A stretch of DNA of 64,000 nucleotides from assembly GCA_030148025.1 (NCBI GenBank), contig JASBUG010000037.1:1-64000 (forward strand). Direction: 5' to 3'. The notes below the pieces were generated by a model. That model was not told the DNA's origin. It worked only from the letters and a program-made list of their open reading frames with translations, and ran no database searches. This document shows positions 7,852-44,515 of the stretch, in pieces (position 1 is the first letter of the stretch; each line of letters begins with the position of its first letter). This DNA comes from Flavobacteriaceae bacterium (GTDB lineage: Bacteria > Bacteroidota > Bacteroidia > Flavobacteriales > Flavobacteriaceae). Position numbers and translations under genes: made by a program.

Positions 7852-9096
7852 ATGGATTACTTCTCGGTAGCAGCCATACTTACTGTGCTTTCAGCGGTTT
7901 TTGGATATATTAATGTGCGCTTTTTAAAATTGCCAATTACTATTGGATTAATGCTTATAACTATAGTCTTCACATTGGTTGTAGTAGCTATTGGTCAGTT
8001 TGACGATACCCTTTTAGTACGTGAAAAGGAGCTCATATCCCAGATCGATTTTAAAACGGTATTGCTTGATATTATGTTAAGCTTTTTACTATTTGCAGGA
8101 GCATTACATACAAATTTTGCTCAGTTAAAAGTACAACGTTGGCCAGTATTTATATTTGCTACAGCTGGCGTTTTAATTTCGACGTTTTTAGTTGGAACGA
8201 TCATGTTTTATGTGCTTCAATTAATAGGAATGAATGTTGATTTTATTTATTGCTTATTATTTGGTGCTTTGATCTCGCCAACCGATCCTATTGCTGTTTT
8301 AGGGATTTTGAAAAAAGCAGGTGCTCCTAAAAAGTTGGAAACTAAAATAGTTGGGGAATCGTTGTTTAATGATGGTGTAGGCGTGGTTATATTTTTAACA
8401 ATCTTTAAAATTGCTGAAGGTGGAAGTGGAGTTACCTTTGGATATATAGTAGAAATGTTTGCTGTTGAGGTTCTTGGTGGGATAGCTCTTGGTTTAATAC
8501 TTGGGTGGATTACTTATAGAATGATGCGATCTATAGACGATTACGAAATAGAAGTGATTATAACTATAGCGGCCGTAATGGGAGGCACATTAATTGCACA
8601 AAAGTTGCATATGTCTGCACCACTGGCAATGGTAACTACTGGATTGATTGTTGGGAATGATACAGTTAGGAATACAGCAATGTCTGAAATAACCGAAACC
8701 TATGTCGATAAGTTTTGGGAGCTATTAGATGTATTTTTAAACACCATATTATTTGTTATGATTGGTATGGAAATGCTTGTATTAACGTTTGAGGGCAACT
8801 ATATTTTAGCTGGATTACTAGGCATACCAATTGTGCTTCTATCGAGATTTATTTCACTTTGGGGACCAATAAAATTCTTTGACAGGAAGCTTGAGTTTGT
8901 TCCTAATACAAATTTAATAATGACCTGGGGAGGACTTAGAGGAGGAATTTCAATTGCATTAGCGCTTAGTTTGACACAAGAAATGCACAAAGAATTGTTT
9001 TTGGTAGTTACATATATTATTGTAGCATTTTCAATAATAGGTCAAGGTTTAACTGTAGAACCTATAGTAAAACGATTTGCAAAAAATAACAGCTAG
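7852..9096 (+). CDS. Na+/H+ antiporter, CPA1 family
   Basis: Multi-TM protein with a CPA1 family pattern. Length 414 aa. Confidence 0.6.
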
Positions 9097-24352: not shown

Positions 24353-25447
24353 TTACTTAAGTGCTTTAGCCTTAGTTTTAGCAGCTTCGTTACGTTCTAT
24401 TTTATGTTCAGGTCTGGACCATTTTGGTTTTTCGCCAAGCGCTTCAAATTTAGAGTCTTTAGCCTCAACTGTTGGAGGGTGTACATTTTTTAAGAAAGGT
24501 TTTTGCGGTTGTAACCCTAATGCCTTAAACATATCCATATCCTCATTTACATCAGGATTTGGAGTTGTAAGTAGCTTGTCTCCGGCAAAAATTGAGTTTG
24601 CACCAGCAAAGAAACACATAGCTTGACCTTCGCGAGTCATTTGTGTACGACCAGCACTTAAACGTACTTGTGTTTCAGGCATTACAATTCGTGTTGTAGC
24701 CACCATACGTACCATATCCCAAATTTCAACAGGCTCTTCATCTTCCATTGGAGTACCATCTACAGCTACTAAAGCGTTGATTGGTACAGATTCTGGTTGT
24801 GGGTTTAATGTAGACAAAGCTACGAGCATTCCAGCACGATCTTCTTCTTTTTCACCCATACCAATAATACCACCACTACAAACGGTTACATTGGTTTTTC
24901 TAACATTGTCTATGGTTTGTAAGCGATCTTCAAATCCACGAGTAGAGATTACTTCTTTATAATATTCTTCAGAAGTATCCAAGTTATGGTTATAAGCATA
25001 TAGTCCAGCTTCTGCTAAACGTTGCGCTTGATTTTCGGTAAGCATACCAAGGGTACAACAAACTTCCATATCTAGCTTGTTTATGGTGCGTACCATTTCT
25101 AATACCTGATCAAATTCAGGACCGTCTTTTACATTTCGCCAAGCGGCTCCCATACAAACTCTGGAGCTTCCAGAAGCTTTCGCACGTAAAGCTTGTGCTT
25201 TTACTTGCTGTACGCTCATAAGGTCGTTCCCTTCAATGTCGGTATGATATCTTGCAGCTTGTGGACAGTATCCACAATCTTCAGGGCAACCACCAGTTTT
25301 GATAGACAGTAATGTGCTTACTTGTACCACATTAGGATCGTGATGCTTACGATGTATGGTTGCTGCTTCATAAAGCAACTCCATTAGTGGCTTATTATAT
25401 ATTTCTAGAATTTCTTCTTTGGTCCAATTGTGTTTCATTTCACTCAT
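24353..25447 (-). CDS. bioB: Biotin synthase (radical SAM), with a ~45 aa basic C-terminal extension
   Basis: CPEDCGYCPQ radical-SAM cluster motif. Overall BioB pattern. Confidence 0.9.
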   Translation of the reverse strand: MSEMKHNWTKEEILEIYNKPLMELLYEAATIHRKHHDPNVVQVSTLLSIKTGGCPEDCGYCPQAARYHTDIEGNDLMSVQQVKAQALRAKASGSSRVCMGAAWRNVKDGPEFDQVLEMVRTINKLDMEVCCTLGMLTENQAQRLAEAGLYAYNHNLDTSEEYYKEVISTRGFEDRLQTIDNVRKTNVTVCSGGIIGMGEKEEDRAGMLVALSTLNPQPESVPINALVAVDGTPMEDEEPVEIWDMVRMVATTRIVMPETQVRLSAGRTQMTREGQAMCFFAGANSIFAGDKLLTTPNPDVNEDMDMFKALGLQPQKPFLKNVHPPTVEAKDSKFEALGEKPKWSRPEHKIERNEAAKTKAKALK

Positions 25448-27639: not shown

Positions 27640-28842
27640 TTATTTAGAAAGTAAGACGGACACAGCATTTCCTCCAAACCCAACCGCATTAACTAGTATG
27701 TTGTTGATGTTTTTTGGAGTTTGACTATTATTTAAAGGTGTTGCAACGAATTGTTGTTTTTGAAGCATAAGAATCGCGAGTTCTATACTTAACATCCCTG
27801 AAGGCCCTAGAGTATGTCCTACTTTCCACTTATTAGTAGTTAATGCAGGAATTTTGTTACAAAAAATTGTTTTAATTGCGTTTATTTCAGCAAGATCACC
27901 TTTTACAGTACCAGGTGTGTGGGTTACAATTATATCAATGTCTTCAGGTGGAACCTCTCCTAAAGCCATACGCATAGAGTCTTGGAAACATTGTGCATTT
28001 GTAGATAGAGAAGCATTGTGTTCTAATACCTCTGTAGCATAGCCAATTCCCTTAATTATGGCTAAGGCATTAACTTTTTTACCTTGCTCTAAACAAGCAA
28101 CCGAAGCACCTTCACCTAAAATCATGGTGTTTTTTTTCTTTTCGGTATCTAGTGCTTTACATGGATAATTTTTATATCCTTTGGAATAGATTTTTAGTGC
28201 CTGCATTTGAGCCACAGTAAACGACGTTAATGGCGCTTCACTACCACCAACTAAAAATTTATCGGTCATCCCCGAATTGATCCAAGCCACACCATTTAAC
28301 AAGGCGTGAAGTGCAGTAGAACAAGTAATAGAATGACTAATTTCTGGCCCTTTGGTTTGGAGATCATGTGCTACCCAAGTAGAAATATTACCGAGTGTAG
28401 TTGTTGGTGATGACAAAGTGTTGGTTTTATTTGTCCCCAAAAATTCCTTGTAATAGTCTTCAAATAATTTTGTGGCACCTCGTGAAGAACCAATGTTAAT
28501 ACCAAAGTTGTCACTACCATTCCAACCGGCCATTTTTATAGCATTTCTGGACGCAAAAATTGCAAAAAGTACAGAGTTATCTAAGGATCTATATTTGTTG
28601 TCAGACTTCTTGAGTGCTTCTATTTCTTCTTTCAGGATATTTGGTAAAAATGCAGCAAGTGCTTTTCCGTGTGAGAATGTATTCTCAGTAAAACAGTGTA
28701 AGTTGTTTAGATAGTTTTCCCAAACAGTATCAAGGTCACTTCCTAAAGGAGAAACCGAACTAATTGCTGTTATTGAAATAGGTTTGTGCACTTGTTTTTT
28801 CTTTCGGCAAAAATACAGGTATTTAAAAAAGGAGCATAGCAA
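27640..28842 (-). CDS. Beta-ketoacyl-ACP synthase I/II-like condensing enzyme
   Basis: Cys-His-His triad motifs are present: CSTALHAL, HTPGT, GHTLGPSG and GFGGN. The real start may be the GTG at 28791 (VHKPISITAI). Confidence 0.65.
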   Translation of the reverse strand: MLCSFFKYLYFCRKKKQVHKPISITAISSVSPLGSDLDTVWENYLNNLHCFTENTFSHGKALAAFLPNILKEEIEALKKSDNKYRSLDNSVLFAIFASRNAIKMAGWNGSDNFGINIGSSRGATKLFEDYYKEFLGTNKTNTLSSPTTTLGNISTWVAHDLQTKGPEISHSITCSTALHALLNGVAWINSGMTDKFLVGGSEAPLTSFTVAQMQALKIYSKGYKNYPCKALDTEKKKNTMILGEGASVACLEQGKKVNALAIIKGIGYATEVLEHNASLSTNAQCFQDSMRMALGEVPPEDIDIIVTHTPGTVKGDLAEINAIKTIFCNKIPALTTNKWKVGHTLGPSGMLSIELAILMLQKQQFVATPLNNSQTPKNINNILVNAVGFGGNAVSVLLSK

Positions 28843-28896: not shown

Positions 28897-29328
28897 ATGG
28901 AACAAGTCAAGAAGAAAAGTTGGATTGGAAGAAATTGGCCATGGGTATTACCTGTTGGTGGTTGTTTAACAGTTATTTTTCTCCTTATTTTTGGGATTGG
29001 AGCTATATTTTTTGGAGTTACTAAAGCTATAAAGAATTCTACACCTTACGAATATGCAGTTGAGCTTGCGCAAAACGATCCTGATGTTATTAATGCTTTA
29101 GGTGAACGAATAGAAACAGACGGGATGCTTAGTGGTAATATTTCTATTAATAATGATGGAGGTGATGTTAATTTTGTAATTCCATTAAAAGGATCCAGAG
29201 GCAAAGGTTCGTTGACTGTAATTGGAGAGAGAATTGATGGCGAATGGGTTTATGAGGAACTCTATGTATTAGTAAAGGAGACCAACGAAAAAATTAACCT
29301 ATTAGAAAAAATATTAGAGGGAATCTAA
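28897..29328 (+). CDS. Coa1-like (cytochrome oxidase assembly factor 1 family) small membrane protein; paralog 1
   Basis: KSWIGRNWPWVLPVGGCL TM anchor followed by a small domain. It is a paralog of 41943-42377. The start is taken at MEQVKKKSW. Confidence 0.45.
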   Translation: MEQVKKKSWIGRNWPWVLPVGGCLTVIFLLIFGIGAIFFGVTKAIKNSTPYEYAVELAQNDPDVINALGERIETDGMLSGNISINNDGGDVNFVIPLKGSRGKGSLTVIGERIDGEWVYEELYVLVKETNEKINLLEKILEGI

Positions 29329-30579
29329 CGCTTTTTCAATGGTGTTATAAACCTTATCTAATTGCTTTTTTGTAATTACAAAAGGCGCTAAAATATAAAT
29401 GGTATTTCCTAACGGACGTAAGCAAACCCCATTATCCATAAAGAATTTGAACAGCTTATTTCTCAAATTTCCATAGCGTTCCATTTCAATATCTAGATCA
29501 AGTGCGTATATGACACCTAGTTGACGAGTTCGAGCTACTTTAGGATGTTTTTTGATATGCACATCAAAAGTTTTATGAGCTTCAATAATTGTTTGAATGT
29601 TAGCTTGAATGTCTTCAGATCGCAATAATTCGATTCCCGCCAGAGCAGCAGTACATGCTATTGGATTAGCCGAATAGGTGTGCCCATGAAAAAACCCTTT
29701 TGCAATATCATCACTTAAAAAAGCATTGTATATTTTTTCAGAACAAGATGTAATTGCCATTGGCACCAAGCCTCCTGTTAAAGATTTAGCTAAACATATA
29801 ATATCTGGTTGATTGGTTAAATGTTCTGAAGCAAAGTGTTTCCCTGTTTTCCCAAACCCAGTCATGACTTCATCTGCAATAGCTAAGGCACCATATTCTT
29901 TGACAATATCAAGCAATTCATCTAAGAGATCTGCATCATACATTTTCATTGCTGCAGCTCCTTGCACTAAAGGTTCATAGATAAAGGCTGCTACTTTTTC
30001 GGTTTTAAGTATTTCAACGAGTTGTTGTTTAACTGACTCAAAATTATCTTTAGTTGGTACTGGAATTCTAGCAACGTCAATAAAAAACTCTTCAAAAGGA
30101 CCATTGTAAACCGATAATCCAGAAACACTCATAGCTCCAAAGGTATCACCATGAAACCCATCTTCTAAGGCAATAATTTTTCCACGTTTTTCACCATTAT
30201 TAAAATGGTATTGTAATGCCATTTTAATAGCCACATCTACAGAGGTAGATCCGTTATCACTAAAAAATACTTTTTCCTGATTCTTTGGAAGAATATCTAT
30301 TAGAGCTTCCGATAATTTTATAGCAGGTTCATGTGTAAATCCAGCAAATACCACATGATCTAGTTGCTGCATTTGTTCAGCAACTTTAGAGGTTATATAA
30401 TCATTACAATGTCCATACATGCAAGTATACCAGGACGCAATTCCATCAATATATTCATTGCCTTGTTCGTCAAACAATAAAGCTTCTTTTGCTTTAGTTA
30501 TCGCTAAATGATCTGGATGTAATTTATGCTGTGTTAATGGGTGCCACAGATGTTTTTTATCGCGTTCTTGTAATGACAT
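29314..30579 (-). CDS. bioA: Adenosylmethionine-8-amino-7-oxononanoate aminotransferase
   Basis: HLWHP...DGIASWY...FSDNGSTSVDVAIKMALQY...GFHGDTFGAMSV matches BioA closely. Confidence 0.9.
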   Translation of the reverse strand: MSLQERDKKHLWHPLTQHKLHPDHLAITKAKEALLFDEQGNEYIDGIASWYTCMYGHCNDYITSKVAEQMQQLDHVVFAGFTHEPAIKLSEALIDILPKNQEKVFFSDNGSTSVDVAIKMALQYHFNNGEKRGKIIALEDGFHGDTFGAMSVSGLSVYNGPFEEFFIDVARIPVPTKDNFESVKQQLVEILKTEKVAAFIYEPLVQGAAAMKMYDADLLDELLDIVKEYGALAIADEVMTGFGKTGKHFASEHLTNQPDIICLAKSLTGGLVPMAITSCSEKIYNAFLSDDIAKGFFHGHTYSANPIACTAALAGIELLRSEDIQANIQTIIEAHKTFDVHIKKHPKVARTRQLGVIYALDLDIEMERYGNLRNKLFKFFMDNGVCLRPLGNTIYILAPFVITKKQLDKVYNTIEKALDSL

Positions 30580-34109: not shown

Positions 34110-34804
34110 CCTATAAATGTTTAATTATAGACGATGAGAAACTGGCAAGAGGGCTGATTCAAACACATTTATCACAATTAGATGATTTTGAATTGATAGC
34201 CTCATGTGCCAGTGCAATTGAGGCAAGTAAAATATTGCAAGAAGAAACTATTGATTTATTGTTTTTAGACATTGAAATGCCTGTTTTAAAAGGTACAGAC
34301 TTCTTTAAAAATCTAGTGCATAAACCCAAAGTGATTTTTACAACAGCTTATAGAGATTATGCCGTAGAAGGGTTTGAACTAAATGCTGTTGACTATATTT
34401 TAAAACCTATTACTTTTCAGCGTTTCTTTAATGCCATAGAAAAGTTTAGAGCTTTACAAAAAGGAACTAATTCGGAACCAACTACCGTTACAACTTCAGA
34501 AAATAAAGATGCTTTTATTTATATAAGAAAAGACAGAAAACAGGTTAAGGTGCATTTAAATTCCATTTTATATATAGAAAGCTTAAAGGACTATATTAAA
34601 ATACATTTAGAAGAAGAAACACACGTAACAAAGTCTAGTATATCAGCTTTTGAAGAAAAGTTAGACGCTAGGTTTATTAGAGTGCATCGTTCTTACATTA
34701 TTAATAAAGATAAGATTACAGCCTATACCAAGAATGATGTTGAAATTGGGAAAATTGAAATCCCAATAGGCGACAACTTTAGGGGGAATTTCTCTGCTTT
34801 TTAA
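34106..34804 (+). CDS. LytTR-family response regulator
   Basis: REC domain (LIIDDE...D55 region) plus a C-terminal LytTR domain (IRVHRSYIIN). Confidence 0.8.
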   Translation: MTYKCLIIDDEKLARGLIQTHLSQLDDFELIASCASAIEASKILQEETIDLLFLDIEMPVLKGTDFFKNLVHKPKVIFTTAYRDYAVEGFELNAVDYILKPITFQRFFNAIEKFRALQKGTNSEPTTVTTSENKDAFIYIRKDRKQVKVHLNSILYIESLKDYIKIHLEEETHVTKSSISAFEEKLDARFIRVHRSYIINKDKITAYTKNDVEIGKIEIPIGDNFRGNFSAF

Positions 34805-35945
34805 AAAGATAGCTCAGATGAACAATACTCATACTTAAAAACACGCCTAAATATCCAATAAATAGTAACCACATTGTGGAGGTGTTGAATAATTTGTAGC
34901 TTAGGTTTGGGAACACTAAAACTGCTTCAGAAAAAAGAAAACTAATTATATAGAATACCCAAGTAATTGTATTGACTTTATGTTTTAATTCAACCCAAAT
35001 AAAAGGCACAAAAAGACCTAAGAATAATAGATGTAACCACGCAATTAATAAAAACCTACTCTCAACAACTTGATCAGCCAGATATGGATGACTTCCAATA
35101 ATGTTGCAAGATACAATTAGTAAAAGTGTACCATATAAAAACCGATATGATTTTTGTGTATGGATAAATGCTTTTCTAAATTTTAGAAGTATTACAAATA
35201 ATGCTATCGAACTTATAAATCCAATAAATTGAATGCTCCAGTGATCAAAACTATAATCTAAGGAATGTGCGTAAAGTCCAATAAGAGAAAAGGTAATGAT
35301 ATACACATGTTCCTTTTTAAAGATAACGGCAGATCGCTGAATAAGTATTGCTAATAGCCAAATAAAAAGAGAGCCAAAATATTGAAAATGTAAATAGAAA
35401 AATATGGCTTGTTGGTACCATGGTGATTCTTGCATTTCCATAGCCATTAAAGGACCTAAGCAGTAAGGACCTATAGATGAAATGAAGTGAAAAACAATTC
35501 CTATTTTAACTAACTGGGTTAATGGATTGTTTTTATTGATTCTTTTCCAAAGGCGTATTAAAAAGATATAGCTTACCCATAAATGTAGCGTAGAAAATAC
35601 AATGGAAAACAAAGCATATCCTTGAATAATAAAAGTGATTAACATTCCAAATACACAAACCTGTAGAGCTAGATAATATTTATAGGAACGCTTGTCAATG
35701 CCATCAGTAAAATTTGTCCATAGCAACACTACCAAAGCATTGAACAAAAACCCTAAAAGCATTACGTGTGAATGTGAATGCAATACATTTTTTAAAGGAA
35801 ACCCTGGAAGCTCGCCTGTAAAAGCATAGCGTAAAATAAGACCAATTGCTGCTCCTAAAAACCCCAAAAGTATGGGATAGAACCAGAGTTGTTTTTGTGT
35901 TATATTAGATTTCATTTCTTCGTCATGCTGAACTTGTTTCAGCAT
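34779..35945 (-). CDS. Polytopic membrane protein, possibly NnrS family
   Basis: About 12 TM segments. LHSHSHVMLLGFLFNAL resembles the NnrS WHxHEMxFG motif. The real start may be MKSN, 30 nt downstream. Confidence 0.35.
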   Translation of the reverse strand: MLKQVQHDEEMKSNITQKQLWFYPILLGFLGAAIGLILRYAFTGELPGFPLKNVLHSHSHVMLLGFLFNALVVLLWTNFTDGIDKRSYKYYLALQVCVFGMLITFIIQGYALFSIVFSTLHLWVSYIFLIRLWKRINKNNPLTQLVKIGIVFHFISSIGPYCLGPLMAMEMQESPWYQQAIFFYLHFQYFGSLFIWLLAILIQRSAVIFKKEHVYIITFSLIGLYAHSLDYSFDHWSIQFIGFISSIALFVILLKFRKAFIHTQKSYRFLYGTLLLIVSCNIIGSHPYLADQVVESRFLLIAWLHLLFLGLFVPFIWVELKHKVNTITWVFYIISFLFSEAVLVFPNLSYKLFNTSTMWLLFIGYLGVFLSMSIVHLSYLFKKQRNSP

Positions 35946-35954
35946 CTCACATAT

Positions 35955-36233
35955 TTAATAGTTCAAAGTTTCTAGATTTGGATTTAATTTTCTAATTAAA
36001 TTTAGTTTCCATTCTTTATGCCAATTCTTTAATTGTTTTTCTCTTTTTATTGCTTGTTCAATATCTGTAAACTCCTCAAAATAAATAAGGTCTTTAATTT
36101 GATACTTTTTTGTGAATTTTGATGCGACCTCATCGTAATGTTCATATAATCTTTTGGATAAGTTTGTAGTAACTCCAATATAGAAAGTCGTTCTATACTT
36201 ATTGGTTAATATGTAAATAAAGCTATTTTGCAT
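35955..36233 (-). CDS. Small GIY-YIG nuclease-domain protein
   Basis: IYILTNKYRTTFYIGVTTNLSKRLYEH carries the GIY-YIG motifs. Length 92 aa. It is flanked by palindromic hairpins. Confidence 0.7.
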   Translation of the reverse strand: MQNSFIYILTNKYRTTFYIGVTTNLSKRLYEHYDEVASKFTKKYQIKDLIYFEEFTDIEQAIKREKQLKNWHKEWKLNLIRKLNPNLETLNY

Positions 36234-36266: not shown

Positions 36267-36884
36267 TTATAACTGCTTTAATATCTCTTGAAATTTATTA
36301 GCATATTCTTTAATCACGTTCTTATCAAAGTAAGGTTCTTCATCTATTCGTCCAATAACAGTCACATCAGTCATTTTTTTGATGATAGCTTCGGTTGTTG
36401 GATGTTCGTTTCCACTAAAAATAATCGAGATATTAAACCCTTTTTCTTTTAAAGCATTAACGGTTAAAAGTGTATGATTAATACTGCCAAGATAATGCCT
36501 TGAAACTACAATCACTTGATAATTAGGTTTTATAATATCTTGAATAGTGTCTTTATCATTTAAAGGAACTAGTAGTCCACCAGCGCCTTCAATTACCAAG
36601 TGGTTCTTGGTTTTAGGCTCCTTAATTTGCTTTAACTCTATACTCACATTATCAATGTTGGCAGCTGCATGCGGACTCATAGGTGTATGCAAAGCATAAG
36701 AATTAGGGTGAAATATTGACTTAGAATTGGAAATAAAATTCTCAACTTTTCGGGTGTCACAATTATCTAATTCGCCTGCTTGAACAGGTTTCCAATAATC
36801 TGCTTCAAGTGCTTCTGTAACTATAGCTGATGCAACTGTTTTTCCTACCTCGGTCGAAATACCTGTTATAAAAATACGCTTCAT
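36267..36884 (-). CDS. bioD: Dethiobiotin synthetase
   Basis: IFITGISTEVGKTV P-loop with the BioD pattern. Length 205 aa. Confidence 0.85.
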   Translation of the reverse strand: MKRIFITGISTEVGKTVASAIVTEALEADYWKPVQAGELDNCDTRKVENFISNSKSIFHPNSYALHTPMSPHAAANIDNVSIELKQIKEPKTKNHLVIEGAGGLLVPLNDKDTIQDIIKPNYQVIVVSRHYLGSINHTLLTVNALKEKGFNISIIFSGNEHPTTEAIIKKMTDVTVIGRIDEEPYFDKNVIKEYANKFQEILKQL

Positions 36885-37261
36885 TAAAATATGGTTTTAC
36901 AGTCGTTGCAGATATATTTTGTCTTTTCAAAAAAAGGGAACAGCATAAAAAATATATTCTTACGCTCTAGAGGTGCAATCAATGCTCGCGTAGAATTGCA
37001 ATTTGTACAATGTAAAGCATTACCATTTTTGTCTTTTTGATACTCTCTAATGTTGTTGTAGATATCTACAGCTTTTTCAAAGTCATCATTAAAAACAAGT
37101 AATTTCACACCTCCTATGGCTTGACTTATAAGAGGATCGGAATCAATGGTTTTTTCATCCATAAGCATTGTTCTAATGCCTTCCGATTCCAGTTTAGAAG
37201 TGGTTACTTGTGCTTCTGTTGAGTATTCAAAAACAGCCAGTACTTTATAGTTGTCTTGCAT
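36884..37261 (-). CDS. DUF2007-like domain fused to a C-terminal Cys4 zinc ribbon, embedded in the bioF-bioD operon
   Basis: KVLAVFEYSTEAQVTTSKLESEGI...VFNDDFEKAVDIYN has the DUF2007 pattern. It is followed by CTNCNS...CNDC. The stop and start overlap its neighbours. Confidence 0.45.
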   Translation of the reverse strand: MQDNYKVLAVFEYSTEAQVTTSKLESEGIRTMLMDEKTIDSDPLISQAIGGVKLLVFNDDFEKAVDIYNNIREYQKDKNGNALHCTNCNSTRALIAPLERKNIFFMLFPFFEKTKYICNDCKTIF

Positions 37262-37263
37262 AG

Positions 37264-38412
37264 TTAATTTATTTCTTTTACAAAAGTAGCTAAGAGCGCC
37301 AACACTTTTGTTATTTCTTTTTCGGTATTATAGCTGTGAATACAAAATCGTAAACGTTCTTCACCTTCAGGAACAGTAGGAGACATAATCGGCTTTACAT
37401 CAAAGCCGTTTTCTTGCAAATGATTGGCAATGGTTTTTACGTTGTTATTTCCTGAAATAATACACGATTGAATTGTCGATACACTTTCAATAAAATGCTT
37501 TTCAATATTCAAAGCTCTTAATTCGGACTTGAAAAATGAGATGTTTTTATGAACTTTTGAAATTGCTTCAGAACCTATTAATAGGTTGTAAGCAGTATGA
37601 ATTGTAGCTAGAGAATGAGGCGGTAAACCTGTGGTATAAATAAAGCTTCTACAGAAATTTACTAAATACTGTTTTAGCAAAGTACTGCCTAATACTGCAG
37701 CACCATGGCAACCTAGCCCTTTTCCAAAGGTGACAATGCGAGCAAAGATATCATGCTCTAATTCTAACGATTGAACTAAACCACAACCATTCTTTCCGAA
37801 AACACCAAGAGCGTGAGCTTCATCAACAATTAGGTAGGCGTTGTAATCTTTACACAGGGAAGCCAATGCAACTAGGTTTGGAGTATCACCATCCATTGAA
37901 AATATTGATTCGGTAACCACATAAATATCATGATTCCCATTAGAAACACGATCGATCATTTTATCAAGATCGACCAAATCGTTGTGTTTAAATTTATAGG
38001 ATTTGGCTTGACTCATGGTAATACCATCCCGAATAGAAGCATGAATTAGCTCATCATACAGAATAACATCACCACGTTGTGGAATGGCTCCAAAAAGACC
38101 TAGGTTAGCATCATAACCTGAATTAAAAATTAGTGCCGATTCACTATCGTGAAACTCACATAATAACGCTTCACAGGTATCATATAACTTATGATTTCCA
38201 GTTAATAATCGTGATCCAGTCGCTCCATTTTCAAATCCATGATCAAGTAAATATTGATGCGCTTCTTTAAAAATGATTTCAGATTTTGAGAACCCTAAAT
38301 AATCATTAGTTGAAAAGTCAATCAATTCATTTTGAACTCCCAATTCACGTAAGGAATTGGTTGCTTTTCGCTGATCTAGCTTTCTCTGAAGTCTTTCTGG
38401 AAAATGTGTCAT
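37264..38412 (-). CDS. bioF: 8-amino-7-oxononanoate synthase
   Basis: STNDYLGFS and the PLP-lysine region (FGKGLG). Class-II aminotransferase. Length 382 aa. Confidence 0.85.
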   Translation of the reverse strand: MTHFPERLQRKLDQRKATNSLRELGVQNELIDFSTNDYLGFSKSEIIFKEAHQYLLDHGFENGATGSRLLTGNHKLYDTCEALLCEFHDSESALIFNSGYDANLGLFGAIPQRGDVILYDELIHASIRDGITMSQAKSYKFKHNDLVDLDKMIDRVSNGNHDIYVVTESIFSMDGDTPNLVALASLCKDYNAYLIVDEAHALGVFGKNGCGLVQSLELEHDIFARIVTFGKGLGCHGAAVLGSTLLKQYLVNFCRSFIYTTGLPPHSLATIHTAYNLLIGSEAISKVHKNISFFKSELRALNIEKHFIESVSTIQSCIISGNNNVKTIANHLQENGFDVKPIMSPTVPEGEERLRFCIHSYNTEKEITKVLALLATFVKEIN

Positions 38413-38423
38413 TGAGGCAAAGA

Positions 38424-38455
38424 TAATTAATGATTTTCAACCTTTTCATTAATTA
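38424..38455. promoter_or_regulatory. 10 bp inverted repeat (TAATTAATGA-N12-TCATTAATTA), 11-43 nt upstream of the bioF start; candidate operator
   Basis: Perfect palindrome read directly. The region is AT-rich, so chance is not excluded. Confidence 0.25.
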
Positions 38456-38514
38456 GCTTACAAGTCATTATTATCTTTTTTAGATAAAAAATTATTGTAA
38501 AACGATAATTTTAT

Positions 38515-38561: not shown

Positions 38562-38768
38562 ATGTCAAGGAACCAAGAAACAAATCAAGTTAGGGTAAAA
38601 GGAAAAAAATTAGAGTGTCATCATTGCAATAATGATACATTTTGGAAGAGAGAAACTTTAATGAACACACCAGGAATGACTTTTTTTAAACTGGACTGGG
38701 CCAACAAACGAGCACAGAATTATATATGCGATAATTGTGGTTACGTGCATTGGTTTATGAATAAATAA
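38562..38768 (+). CDS. Small Cys4 zinc-ribbon protein (DUF2082-like nucleic-acid-binding type)
   Basis: CHHCNNDTF...CDNCGYVHWF is a CxxC...CxxCGY pattern. Length 68 aa. Confidence 0.45.
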   Translation: MSRNQETNQVRVKGKKLECHHCNNDTFWKRETLMNTPGMTFFKLDWANKRAQNYICDNCGYVHWFMNK

Positions 38769-39849: not shown

Positions 39850-40056
39850 ATGCCAATAATTGTAAATCTTGATGTCATGCTGGCAAAGCGCAAAATGAAA
39901 AGTAAAGACTTGGCAGAAATCATTGGTATTACTACAGCAAATTTGTCTATTCTAAAATCGGGGAAGGCAAAGGCTATAAGGTTTTCTACTTTAGAAGCTA
40001 TTTGTAAAGCACTCGATTGCCAACCGAGTGATATTTTAGAGTATGTAAAGGATTAG
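39850..40056 (+). CDS. XRE-family (HTH_26, YozG-like) transcriptional regulator
   Basis: MPIIVNLDVMLAKRKMKSKDLAEIIGITTANLSILKSGKAKAIRFSTLEAICKALDCQPSDIL is the canonical Cro/C1 HTH. Confidence 0.8.
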   Translation: MPIIVNLDVMLAKRKMKSKDLAEIIGITTANLSILKSGKAKAIRFSTLEAICKALDCQPSDILEYVKD

Positions 40057-42417: not shown

Positions 42418-43677
42418 ATGTTTGCTTTAGTTGATTGTAATAATTTTTATGCTTCGTGCGAGCGCGTATTTAATCCTAATTTACGCCAGAAACCTATTGC
42501 AATTTTATCTAATAATGATGGTTGTGTGATTTCCAGAAGCGATGAAGCTAAAGCATTAGGTTTGCCAATGGGCGCACCTATTTTTAAATGGGAAGGCTTC
42601 TGTAAAGCAAATAACATTAAGGTATTTTCATCAAACTATCCTTTGTACGGAGATATGAGTACGCGTGTGATGAAAATATTAGAGCAATTTACACCAGATG
42701 TTGAGGTTTATAGTATAGATGAATCCTTTTTAGAGTTTAAAGGATTTGATTATGTTGATTTTGATGCATATGGACTCGAAATCCGAAAACGTGTATTAAA
42801 ATGGACAGGAATTCCAACTTGTGTTGGAATAGCTCCAACTAAAGCATTATCGAAAGTAGCCAATAAAATTGCGCGAAAATTTCCTAAAGAAACTAAAGGG
42901 GCTTATGTTATTGATTCAGAAGAAAAGCGTGTAAAAGCACTTAAATGGATACAGCTTAAAGATGTTTGGGGAATTGGTCGAAGGTTGCATAAACGCTTAT
43001 CAGCAAAGGGTTGTAAAACAGCGTATGACTTTGTGCAATTACCAGATGATTGGGTACGTCAGCAGTTTTCTATTACTGAATGGAAGCTTAAAAAAGACCT
43101 TGAAGGTGTTCCTAAGCTTACCTTGGATATGAGAGAAACTAAACGAGCAATCGCTACAACTAGAAGTTTTGATTTTACTTATGATGATATTAATTACATT
43201 AAAGAACGTGTTTCTACATTTGCAGTAACTTGTGCTGAGAAATTGAGGCAGCAACACTCTAGTTGTTATATGATTATTGTAACATTAAGTAGCGATAGTC
43301 ATAAGCGGAATTTAAAACAACATCGAGGGAGTCAAGTTGTAAAATTATCCTACCCAACTGATTCTACATTAACCATAAGTAAGGCTGCTGTAGAAGCTGT
43401 AGAAACTATTTTTAAACAAGGAGTTAAATATAAAAGAGCAGGTGTTATTGTTACAGGTTTAGTGCCTACAGAAAATCATCAGTTGCATTTATTTGACGCT
43501 GAAAATCCTAAGCACAAACCTTTAATGGGAGTTATGGATAAGCTCAATTATAAGTATGGTGATTATAAATTAAAATTAGGTAATCAAGATTTAGAGCGTA
43601 CGTGGAAAATGCGTCAAGAACGATTAACACCTCGATATACAACAAATATTAAAGATATTATAAAAGTAAAATGCTAA
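42418..43677 (+). CDS. umuC: Y-family translesion DNA polymerase (UmuC-like)
   Basis: ALVDCNNFYASCERVF...ILSNNDGCVISRS matches the UmuC/DinB N-terminal catalytic motifs. Length 419 aa. Confidence 0.85.
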   Translation: MFALVDCNNFYASCERVFNPNLRQKPIAILSNNDGCVISRSDEAKALGLPMGAPIFKWEGFCKANNIKVFSSNYPLYGDMSTRVMKILEQFTPDVEVYSIDESFLEFKGFDYVDFDAYGLEIRKRVLKWTGIPTCVGIAPTKALSKVANKIARKFPKETKGAYVIDSEEKRVKALKWIQLKDVWGIGRRLHKRLSAKGCKTAYDFVQLPDDWVRQQFSITEWKLKKDLEGVPKLTLDMRETKRAIATTRSFDFTYDDINYIKERVSTFAVTCAEKLRQQHSSCYMIIVTLSSDSHKRNLKQHRGSQVVKLSYPTDSTLTISKAAVEAVETIFKQGVKYKRAGVIVTGLVPTENHQLHLFDAENPKHKPLMGVMDKLNYKYGDYKLKLGNQDLERTWKMRQERLTPRYTTNIKDIIKVKC

Positions 43678-43688
43678 TAACTGTCAGA

Positions 43689-44047
43689 CTGAGCGCAGTC
43701 GAAGTCCAATGAAATATGAATTTTTATTATGTTTATATATTAAGATGTAATGATGACTCCTTTTATATAGGAATTACAAATAATATAAGTAAACGTTTCA
43801 ATGAACATCAATAAGGACTGGATAAAAATAGTTATACTTATAGCAGAAGACCTCTAATTTTGGAATTTAGCCAAGAGTTTAATGATGTTCTTCAAGCAAT
43901 TTATTTTGAAAAGAAGATTAAAGGATGGACTAGAGCAAAAAAACAAGCACTAATTAATGATGAATGGGATATGCTTAAGATTTTAGCAGAATGTAGAAAT
44001 GCGACACATTGTAAATATAAAGATTCAAGCGCTTCGACTGCGCTCAG
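43689..44047. mobile_element. Roughly 360 bp cassette bounded by perfect 16 bp terminal inverted repeats (CTGAGCGCAGTCGAAG ... CTTCGACTGCGCTCAG), carrying a GIY-YIG ORF; MITE-like
   Basis: The inverted repeats were read directly at 43689-43704 and 44032-44047. The cassette fills the umuC-umuD intergenic space. Confidence 0.55.
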
Positions 44048-44072
44048 CGGGACAAACCGAACAAAAACCTAA
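43716..44072 (+). pseudogene. GIY-YIG nuclease-domain ORF interrupted by an in-frame TAA at 43812-43814
   Basis: MNFYYVYILRCNDDSFYIGITNNISKRFNEHQ*GLDKNSYTYSRRP... The frame is continuous across the stop. It is a paralog of 35955-36233. Confidence 0.55.
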
Positions 44073-44074
44073 AT

Positions 44075-44515
44075 ATGTTAATAAAAGAAACTAAAAACCT
44101 CACGTTCTATACACCAGAAACAGTTAAGGATTCTGGAGCACTATTTTTTGATGCTGGAATTTCAGCAGGATTTCCATCGCCAGCAGAAGATTTTAAAGAG
44201 CATCGTTTATCACTAGATGAAGAACTGATAACTAATAAAGAAGCAACTTTTTTTGCACGTGTTAGCGGTCAATCAATGATCAATGCTGGATTAGATGATA
44301 ACGATTTATTAGTGATAGATAGAAGTCTGGAACCTACTCATAACAAAATTGCTGTTTGTTTTTTAGATGGAGAGTTTACCGTAAAACGGTTAAAAGTTGA
44401 AAATGATGGTGTTTGGCTACAACCTGAAAATGAAAATTACCAACCTATAAAAGTCACAGAAGAAAACAATTTTGTTATTTGGGGAATTGTTACAAATGTG
44501 ATAAAAAAAGTATAA
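44075..44515 (+). CDS. umuD: UmuD/LexA-like S24 peptidase
   Basis: An Ala-Gly cleavage site (ISAGFP), Ser nucleophile (SGQSM) and Lys (TVKRLK). Confidence 0.8.
   Translation: MLIKETKNLTFYTPETVKDSGALFFDAGISAGFPSPAEDFKEHRLSLDEELITNKEATFFARVSGQSMINAGLDDNDLLVIDRSLEPTHNKIAVCFLDGEFTVKRLKVENDGVWLQPENENYQPIKVTEENNFVIWGIVTNVIKKV

Follow-up and report, generated by a model that had tools for sequence, protein, structure and literature searches.

Why should a small protein that belongs to no described biotin pathway be encoded in the middle of a biotin operon? The question is raised by a stretch of 64,000 nucleotides (the window, positions 1 to 64,000 of contig JASBUG010000037.1 in the GenBank assembly GCA_030148025.1 of a Flavobacteriaceae bacterium), in which a gene for a 125-residue protein, here called X, lies on the minus strand between bioF, the gene of an 8-amino-7-oxononanoate synthase-like enzyme, and bioD, the gene of dethiobiotin synthase. 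The first-pass annotation of this DNA had picked out X as a DUF2007-like protein with a zinc ribbon of four cysteines (Cys4), and had offered a regulatory or chaperoning factor, or a carrier of an intermediate, as its possible roles. The reading preferred here, tentatively and with somewhat less than even confidence, is that X is a small non-catalytic, membrane-proximal accessory protein or regulator of biotin homeostasis, and not a partner of BioF or BioD. X has kept its slot in the operon through deep divergence, and it outlives the biotin genes where these decay.

The coding sequence of X, stop codon included, runs on the minus strand at 36884..37261. Its ATG, as read from the codons, is at 37261..37259 and is separated by two nucleotides (ct) from the bioF stop TAA at 37266..37264; the last base of its own stop TAA (36886..36884) is also the first of the bioD ATG (36884..36882), giving the sequence TAATG at 36886..36882. 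The gene boundaries and both junctions, i.e., the 2-nt gap to the bioF stop and the 1-nt overlap with the bioD start, had been correctly placed from the outset. A sequence search returned 702 homologues, annotated solely as “DUF2007 domain-containing” or “putative signal transducing” proteins, and the pairwise ratio of nonsynonymous to synonymous substitution rates (dN/dS) of X is about 0.10. The possibility that X is a chance open reading frame (ORF) or a mis-annotation was ruled out on account of these homologues and this ratio: X is a genuine, strongly conserved protein of 125 residues.

Conservation of the arrangement was followed in two collections, a genome sample of 65 loci with a close relative of X (one genome per species) and a metagenome sample of 80 loci restricted to close orthologues. 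The order bioF-X-bioD was found in 44 of the 65 genome loci, usually followed by bioA, a small Coa1-like gene on the opposite strand, a ketoacyl synthase gene and bioB. In the metagenome sample the order was complete in 54 of 80 loci, and about nine more were cut by a contig end or partly decayed, which brings the count to about 63 of 80. The stop of X overlaps the start of bioD by 1 or 4 nt in nearly all loci. The same order is also present in divergent relatives with 35–52% identity to X (P0121, P0123, P0124, P0128, P0135 from Mesonia sp. K7, and P0138), often with 4-nt overlaps at every junction, so that the position of X is kept from about 80% down to about 35% identity. The gene is therefore neither strain-specific nor randomly located, and the X sub-family is a long-standing part of the bio operon of Flavobacteriaceae. 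A shared function of X with the bio locus is favored because such conservation of gene order usually reflects co-function. A full-text literature search returned no paper dealing with a gene that Flavobacteriaceae have between bioF and bioD, and no description of X was found in the biotin literature searched, in agreement with the earlier statement that X stands outside any described biotin pathway. The two domains are each known, and their pairing as a fixed member of a bio operon appears to be undescribed.

The fate of X where the biotin genes have been lost bears directly on the hypothesis that X serves BioF and/or BioD as a chaperone, scaffold or regulator, or is the carrier of an intermediate between the two. 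The hypothesis has the gene order on its side, X being placed directly between both genes with its stop overlapping the bioD start, an arrangement that more than 100 loci share. X is found, however, as umuC-X-umuD or MocR-X-umuD in 21 of the 65 genome loci, most of them from Polaribacter, with no bioF, bioD, bioA or ketoacyl synthase (KAS) gene within 6–10 kb of it, and in 20-kb views of Polaribacter Hel1_85 and SA4-12, X is intact while the syntenic slots of bioB, the synthase gene and bioA no longer contain these genes. Stages of decay were also caught. In locus L091 an intact X of 125 residues stands beside a bioF that is spread over three frames, bioD is absent and the synthase gene has shrunk to its last 77 codons; in L135, X is likewise intact at 125 residues and residues 59–144 of bioD are deleted; in L158, again with an intact X of 125 residues, bioD is reduced to its last 62 codons. 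The X copies of L091 and L135 are nearest to copies from bio contexts (90% and 99% identity, respectively), and because of this the loss of bio genes with retention of X is counted, on these sequence relationships, as at least three independent events, including that of the main Polaribacter clade.

The pairwise dN/dS of X is 0.12 in the group without bio genes and 0.10 in the group with them, and X is a pseudogene in one locus only (L065). At the loci followed, a co-loss of X with the pathway was not seen, X being intact in spite of the deletion or decay of bioF, bioD and bioA. A role solely for BioF and BioD is disfavored because X is kept under purifying selection without bioF and bioD, and the earlier suggestion of a chaperone or carrier for these enzymes has to be set aside as very improbable: in at least three independent lineages X is intact and under selection at loci where bioF carries frameshifts or is deleted and bioD is truncated or gone. 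Two further points tell against such a partnership. 7-Keto-8-aminopelargonic acid (KAPA) and 7,8-diaminopelargonic acid (DAPA) are free, diffusible compounds, and it is BioA, not BioD, that acts after BioF (PMC12915131); and in Weeksellaceae, where the bio units are bioEFD, bioBA and bioL, no gene is named between bioF and bioD (PMC12704756). The survival of X past the loss of the pathway appears to be undescribed as well.

The umuC-X-umuD order had prompted another explanation, that X is a mobile cassette which inserts itself between the genes of operons. It was rejected, as an ancestral umuCD neighborhood together with the decay intermediates explains the arrangement. The umuC-umuD pair is an ancestral neighbor of the bio operon across these genera: umuC-umuD-bioF-X-bioD is found in L033, L035 and L062, and biotin-making Polaribacter have bioF-X-bioD-umuD with umuC just upstream (L044, L053, L107, L110 and L155). 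X carries no repeats and no nuclease, and the true mobile elements nearby are GIY-YIG genes. From this comparison of gene orders, umuC-X-umuD is best described as a scar of operon decay and not of transposition. The window has its own Y-family polymerase genes, umuC at 42418..43677 and umuD at 44075..44515 (both plus strand), in the reverse of the umuDC order of E. coli; there is no second copy or relic of X between them, the gap being occupied by a decayed GIY-YIG element.

The promoter sequences probably give X a degree of independence within the operon. The Bacteroidetes −7 promoter consensus, TAnnTTTG, immediately precedes the start codon of bioF in most loci; the box of the window (TATCTTTG, 38418..38425, minus strand) ends 5 nt before the bioF ATG, and TAnnTTTG is conserved there in an alignment of 80 upstream regions, so that an mRNA starting from it would be nearly leaderless. 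A second, candidate internal box (TACTTTTG, 37281..37288, minus strand) is located within the 3′ end of bioF, with its 5′ T 27 nt upstream of the X ATG. Of 108 bio-context loci, 86 have TAnnTTTG at a distance of 15–31 nt upstream of the X start, where chance would give about 0.06 per locus. The internal box overlaps a [T/I]-F-V motif of BioF; the Phe codon of the box is TTT in 80 of 81 loci versus 83% in the body of the gene, and the third base of the codon before it is T in 79 of 81 versus 39% expected, although the sequences are related and binomial values computed from these counts are not true probabilities. The synonymous sites of these genes are otherwise near saturation, and because synonymous codon choice is fixed at the box, the constraint is taken to act on the DNA itself. 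As this conserved −7 box precedes it, X probably heads a transcript of its own, X-bioD(-bioA), besides any read-through from bioF. The first-pass annotation had called X clearly co-translated with the biotin enzymes; this stands for X and bioD, whose coding sequences overlap by 1 or 4 nt at almost every locus, and does not stand on the bioF side, where the conserved internal box intervenes.

As to what X might do, the protein consists of two modules, and the original domain calls, a DUF2007-like N-terminal half and a Cys4 ribbon, hold. The first module (residues 1–72, 37046..37261, minus strand) is a DUF2007-like domain, i.e., a GlnB/ACT-like alpha/beta domain of the beta-alpha-beta-beta-alpha-beta type, and its best-conserved stretch is the near-invariant DExTIDxDPLxSxAIGGVKL. 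X itself scores 19.6 bits against Pfam DUF2007 (PF09413), below the gathering cutoff of 25.7, and 20.7 bits against the NCBIfam model DUF2007_rel, with a cutoff of 55; its relatives P0143, P0171 and P0123 pass the PF09413 cutoff with 40.9, 28.5 and 27.4 bits, and in a family alignment of 92 sequences (31% mean identity) all 92 match PF09413 at E<=0.01. A profile search of the whole library placed 2993 cluster representatives in the X family at E<=1e-3 and 331 at E<=1e-10, mostly proteins of 125–145 residues that span both halves of X. The AlphaFold2 model of X reached a predicted local distance difference test score (pLDDT) of 88 with the 92-sequence alignment and of 60 with 29 close orthologues, and the modelled N-terminal fold agrees with 2HFV (RPA1041), the founding structure of DUF2007. 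Nothing significant was returned for X by Foldseek against the Protein Data Bank (PDB) or by a profile search of PDB sequences. X differs from PF09413, the “putative prokaryotic signal transducing protein” family, by its added C-terminal Cys4/hydrophobic module, and membership brings no mechanism with it, as this is a family without any member of tested function; a full-text literature search found no paper on what DUF2007 does.

The second module contains two predicted metal knuckles, C85-T-N-C88 (36998..37009) and C118-N-D-C121 (36899..36910), with a hydrophobic, Pro-containing loop, I103-FFMLFPF-F111 (36929..36955), between them, all on the minus strand. The four cysteines C85, C88, C118 and C121 are the sole invariant columns of the 92 diverse aligned sequences. 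The distance between the knuckles is usually 33–39 residues in the relatives of X, and it includes an uncharged stretch of mostly 14–19 residues, with a Pro in 79 of 92 and a 19-residue Kyte-Doolittle mean of at least 1.6 in 30 of 92. In X and its close orthologues a 10-residue deletion has left the invariant IFFMLFPFF, and the segment MLFPFFE does not vary among the orthologues. In certain family members the knuckles are absent and an ordinary C-terminal transmembrane helix is present instead, and this exchange suggests that the C-terminal half is a membrane tether. If both knuckles join on one metal, the hydrophobic stretch between them cannot span the membrane and must therefore loop back.

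Such a design is known from LITAF, a zinc-binding monotopic membrane protein whose zinc finger stabilizes the insertion into the membrane and which has both its ends in the cytoplasm (PMC5095921). The succession of a CxxC knuckle, a hydrophobic insert and a second CxxC knuckle in the LITAF/SIMPLE-like zinc ribbon is shared by X, and the long-form relatives from bio operons cover nearly the whole Pfam zf-LITAF-like profile (PF10601), below its cutoff. P0123, a bio-operon member, aligns to positions 4–63 of 70 with 21.8 bits, and P0135 to positions 4–68 of 70; P0135, P0171 and P0188 score weaker than P0123. X itself gave no match to PF10601, and the matches of all its relatives are below the 23.8-bit cutoff. 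LITAF differs in that its insert has 22 residues, against 9 hydrophobic residues in X, and in being a eukaryotic endosomal protein with no link to a vitamin. A LITAF-like reading of the C-terminal half appears to be undescribed. Also encoded in the window, divergently from bioF, is a 68-residue CxxC...CxxC protein (38562..38768, plus strand) with a faint likeness to X in its C-terminal half (E 4.6e-5 in a profile comparison among the 418 ORFs of the window, pairwise BLAST E 0.017), which may be a stand-alone form of the X ribbon.

The loci that have lost the bio genes were also informative through the neighbors that X has there, namely a 607-residue BtuB-like TonB-dependent receptor, which matches models of vitamin B12 receptors best, with scores well below their cutoffs, and a divergent 499-residue MocR-type regulator. 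Of 45 no-bio loci, 37 have the receptor and/or the regulator (receptor 35, regulator 34), while among 119 bio-keeping loci there is a single case, the decayed L091, in which the receptor is inserted directly after X. A lone intact bioB follows the receptor on the same strand in L163 (the complete Polaribacter genome CP079195.1) and in L013, and only 2 of the 45 no-bio loci show a bioB; for CP079195.1, searches with BioD and BioB, taking the best 120 of more than 8000 matches in each, returned this lone bioB beside the receptor. Loci of Polaribacter without bioF, bioA and bioD, in which the receptor faces the MocR regulator and has a lone bioB right behind it, were noted at 8206..11143 in L163, 1142..4285 in L013 and 1254..4644 in L002. 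Marine bacteria whose genomes have bioB only can grow on dethiobiotin (PMC9561691), and BioL, a KAPA-sensing repressor of the MocR type, controls the bio genes in Weeksellaceae (PMC12704756, PMC12915131). On its gene content, the receptor-bioB-MocR locus is a candidate for the salvage of dethiobiotin or biotin, with the receptor as a possible outer-membrane receptor for vitamin B7, and the no-bio loci look like a switch from biotin synthesis to salvage. This is suggestive only, because most no-bio loci share ancestry.

The retention of X with a lone bioB in L013 and L163 is also what would be expected if X were an auxiliary factor of BioB, its Cys4 site binding iron in the manner of rubredoxin, or an Fe-S cluster, in order to give electrons or to rebuild the sacrificial cluster. 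The four invariant cysteines fit this explanation, as do weak rubredoxin-type matches in a few relatives, and there is a precedent in mycobacterial BsaP, a small cysteine-bearing accessory protein required by BioB which, like X, was a protein of previously unknown function in a biotin gene cluster (PMC11099021). The explanation is nevertheless quite unlikely. In intact clusters, bioB is the most distal gene and in no case a direct neighbor of X; Hel1_85 and SA4-12 have an intact X although no bioB occupies the syntenic slot within 10 kb; and the scarcity of bioB in the no-bio loci also stands against the explanation. In most members the knuckles are scored as zinc ribbons of the ordinary kind, and rubredoxins have no counterpart of the hydrophobic insert. 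The two proteins can likewise be set apart, by description and not by sequence: BsaP has three conserved cysteines, is encoded downstream of bioB, is actinobacterial and has neither a DUF2007 domain nor a hydrophobic insert, whereas X is encoded between bioF and bioD and survives the local absence of bioB.

A simpler explanation of the survival of X is that it is a housekeeping membrane-proximal protein with no specific link to biotin, which is in the bio operon by descent and is kept for some other need. It would account for the unchanged dN/dS of X after the bio genes have decayed, for its position 9–12 nt behind umuC in Polaribacter without a −7 box of its own, and for the size of the family, whose 2993 representatives (E<=1e-3) include members in unrelated neighborhoods. 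It does not readily explain why the same slot and the overlapping stop and start are held down to about 35% identity across genera, why the synonymous sites within bioF preserve a dedicated promoter box, or why the replacement neighbors are again of the vitamin type (the BtuB-like receptor, bioB and the MocR regulator). This explanation is a serious possibility that is, on the whole, held to be somewhat unlikely.

A membrane-proximal accessory or regulator of biotin homeostasis, the reading preferred here, could be pictured as follows. The paired CxxC knuckles would be held together by a metal in the fashion of a LITAF-type zinc ribbon, and the hydrophobic loop would dip into the inner membrane from the cytoplasmic side. 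The 9-residue loop of X may rather attach peripherally to the membrane or to a partner, and it could be a patch for docking at the interface or on a protein. The DUF2007 domain, in which the AIGGVKL loop is invariant, would bind a small ligand or a partner protein. Regulators of the PII type (GlnB superfamily) dock on membrane transporters, as in the case of GlnK-AmtB. The target would be something that producers and scavengers of biotin both need, and candidates are the uptake or handling of biotin or dethiobiotin at the inner membrane, or the machinery that uses biotin. In a bolder version, X would be the cytoplasmic-membrane part of an unrecognized module of biotin/dethiobiotin homeostasis common to producers and scavengers, a DUF2007 sensor or adaptor, clamped by zinc and docked on the membrane, that would bind biotin or one of its precursors, would gate uptake or use, and would be paired in scavenging Polaribacter with the TonB-dependent receptor and a BioL-like MocR regulator. 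Stated in such detail the proposal is unlikely to be correct as a whole; if it were, the Polaribacter receptor would be the first TonB-dependent outer-membrane receptor for biotin or dethiobiotin.

Several observations weigh against a role of X in biotin homeostasis, in either form. The loop of X has 9 uncharged residues (IFFMLFPFF) and a 19-residue Kyte-Doolittle mean of 1.12, and judged by its length it would be too short for the LITAF-type insertion of the longer relatives. For no DUF2007 protein did the literature search find a ligand or an experiment. Two more distant members of the family, P0160, and P0203 from Rufibacter, are found in unrelated contexts (L081 and L082). The −7 box is present upstream of X in none of 25 umuC-context loci and in 2 of 20 MocR-context loci, and a biotin-linked regulation of X is not obviously kept in these contexts. 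The MocR neighbor matches PdxR best, with 271 bits, below the cutoff of 320, and is at most a putative orthologue of BioL. Most of the no-bio loci come from one Polaribacter clade, and the association with the receptor and the regulator is in part shared ancestry. Loss was scored at the locus only, and bio genes could exist elsewhere in the “no-bio” genomes.

The reason to pursue a gene of this kind is found in the recent history of the pathway, to which BioU, BioZ, BioE/BioL and BsaP were added as unexpected components, each of which was first noticed as a gene without explanation within or beside a bio cluster. X is a lead of the same sort, with one slot in the bio operon kept through deep divergence in a major group of marine bacteria and a pattern of loss that sets it apart from the flanking enzymes. 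As comparative genomics the lead is solid; the function is what we infer from it. Should X act in the handling of biotin or dethiobiotin, it would provide a first function for DUF2007 and extend the LITAF-type membrane anchor to bacterial metabolism, and X together with the receptor-bioB-MocR locus could help to account for the way in which Flavobacteriia auxotrophic for biotin obtain the vitamin or its precursor in the sea. Should X be unrelated to biotin, it would show that a tight embedding in an operon does not prove a shared function.

The other genes of the dispersed bio cluster in the window, all on the minus strand, were assigned as follows. The first gene of the unit, bioF (37264..38412), encodes a pyridoxal phosphate (PLP) enzyme of the BioF/Kbl family; TIGR00858 is its best family with 347 bits, yet below the cutoff of 426, and PF00155 matches with E 6e-40. 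The bioD product (36267..36884) passes TIGR00347 with 120.8 bits (cutoff 83.3). The cluster continues with bioA (29314..30579; TIGR00508, 540 bits), which directly follows bioD in most related loci, and ends with bioB (24353..25447; TIGR00433, 407 bits). Between bioA and bioB lies the gene of a FabF-like ketoacyl synthase (27640..28842; PF00109 and PF02801), which is kept there wherever the related bio loci reach far enough. No bioC, bioH, bioG or bioE was seen near this synthase, which is of the KAS I/II type and may supply the pimeloyl moiety by a route other than that of the KAS III enzyme BioZ. A gene for a 153-residue protein of the Coa1 family (PF08695; 28867..29328, plus strand) lies on the opposite strand between bioA and the synthase gene and is kept there in most related loci. 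Inside the bio unit there is also a gene for a 388-residue polytopic membrane protein (34779..35945, minus strand) with no family match; loci of the Tenacibaculum type have the order bioD-membrane protein-bioA with this protein, and it is possible that it is a transporter or a partner of X.

Upstream of bioF, a biotin operator shared with the MocR/TonB region was considered and rejected, as the sole conserved palindrome tracks the zn68/DUF2975/HTH_26 operon instead. This palindrome, ATTATCG-N5-CAATAAT at 38491..38509, has the family form ATTATYG-N5-CRATAAT in dozens of loci and is, from its distribution, probably the operator of a small Xre-type regulator encoded at 39850..40056. As to the GIY-YIG genes, a small intact one (35955..36233, minus strand) comes right after bioD, and the one between umuC and umuD (43716..44072, plus strand) is decayed, with an internal stop, and is flanked by 23-nt inverted repeats at 43682–43704 and 44032–44054. 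Copies are found at varying spots of the bio cluster in related loci, and these small genes appear to be mobile fillers.

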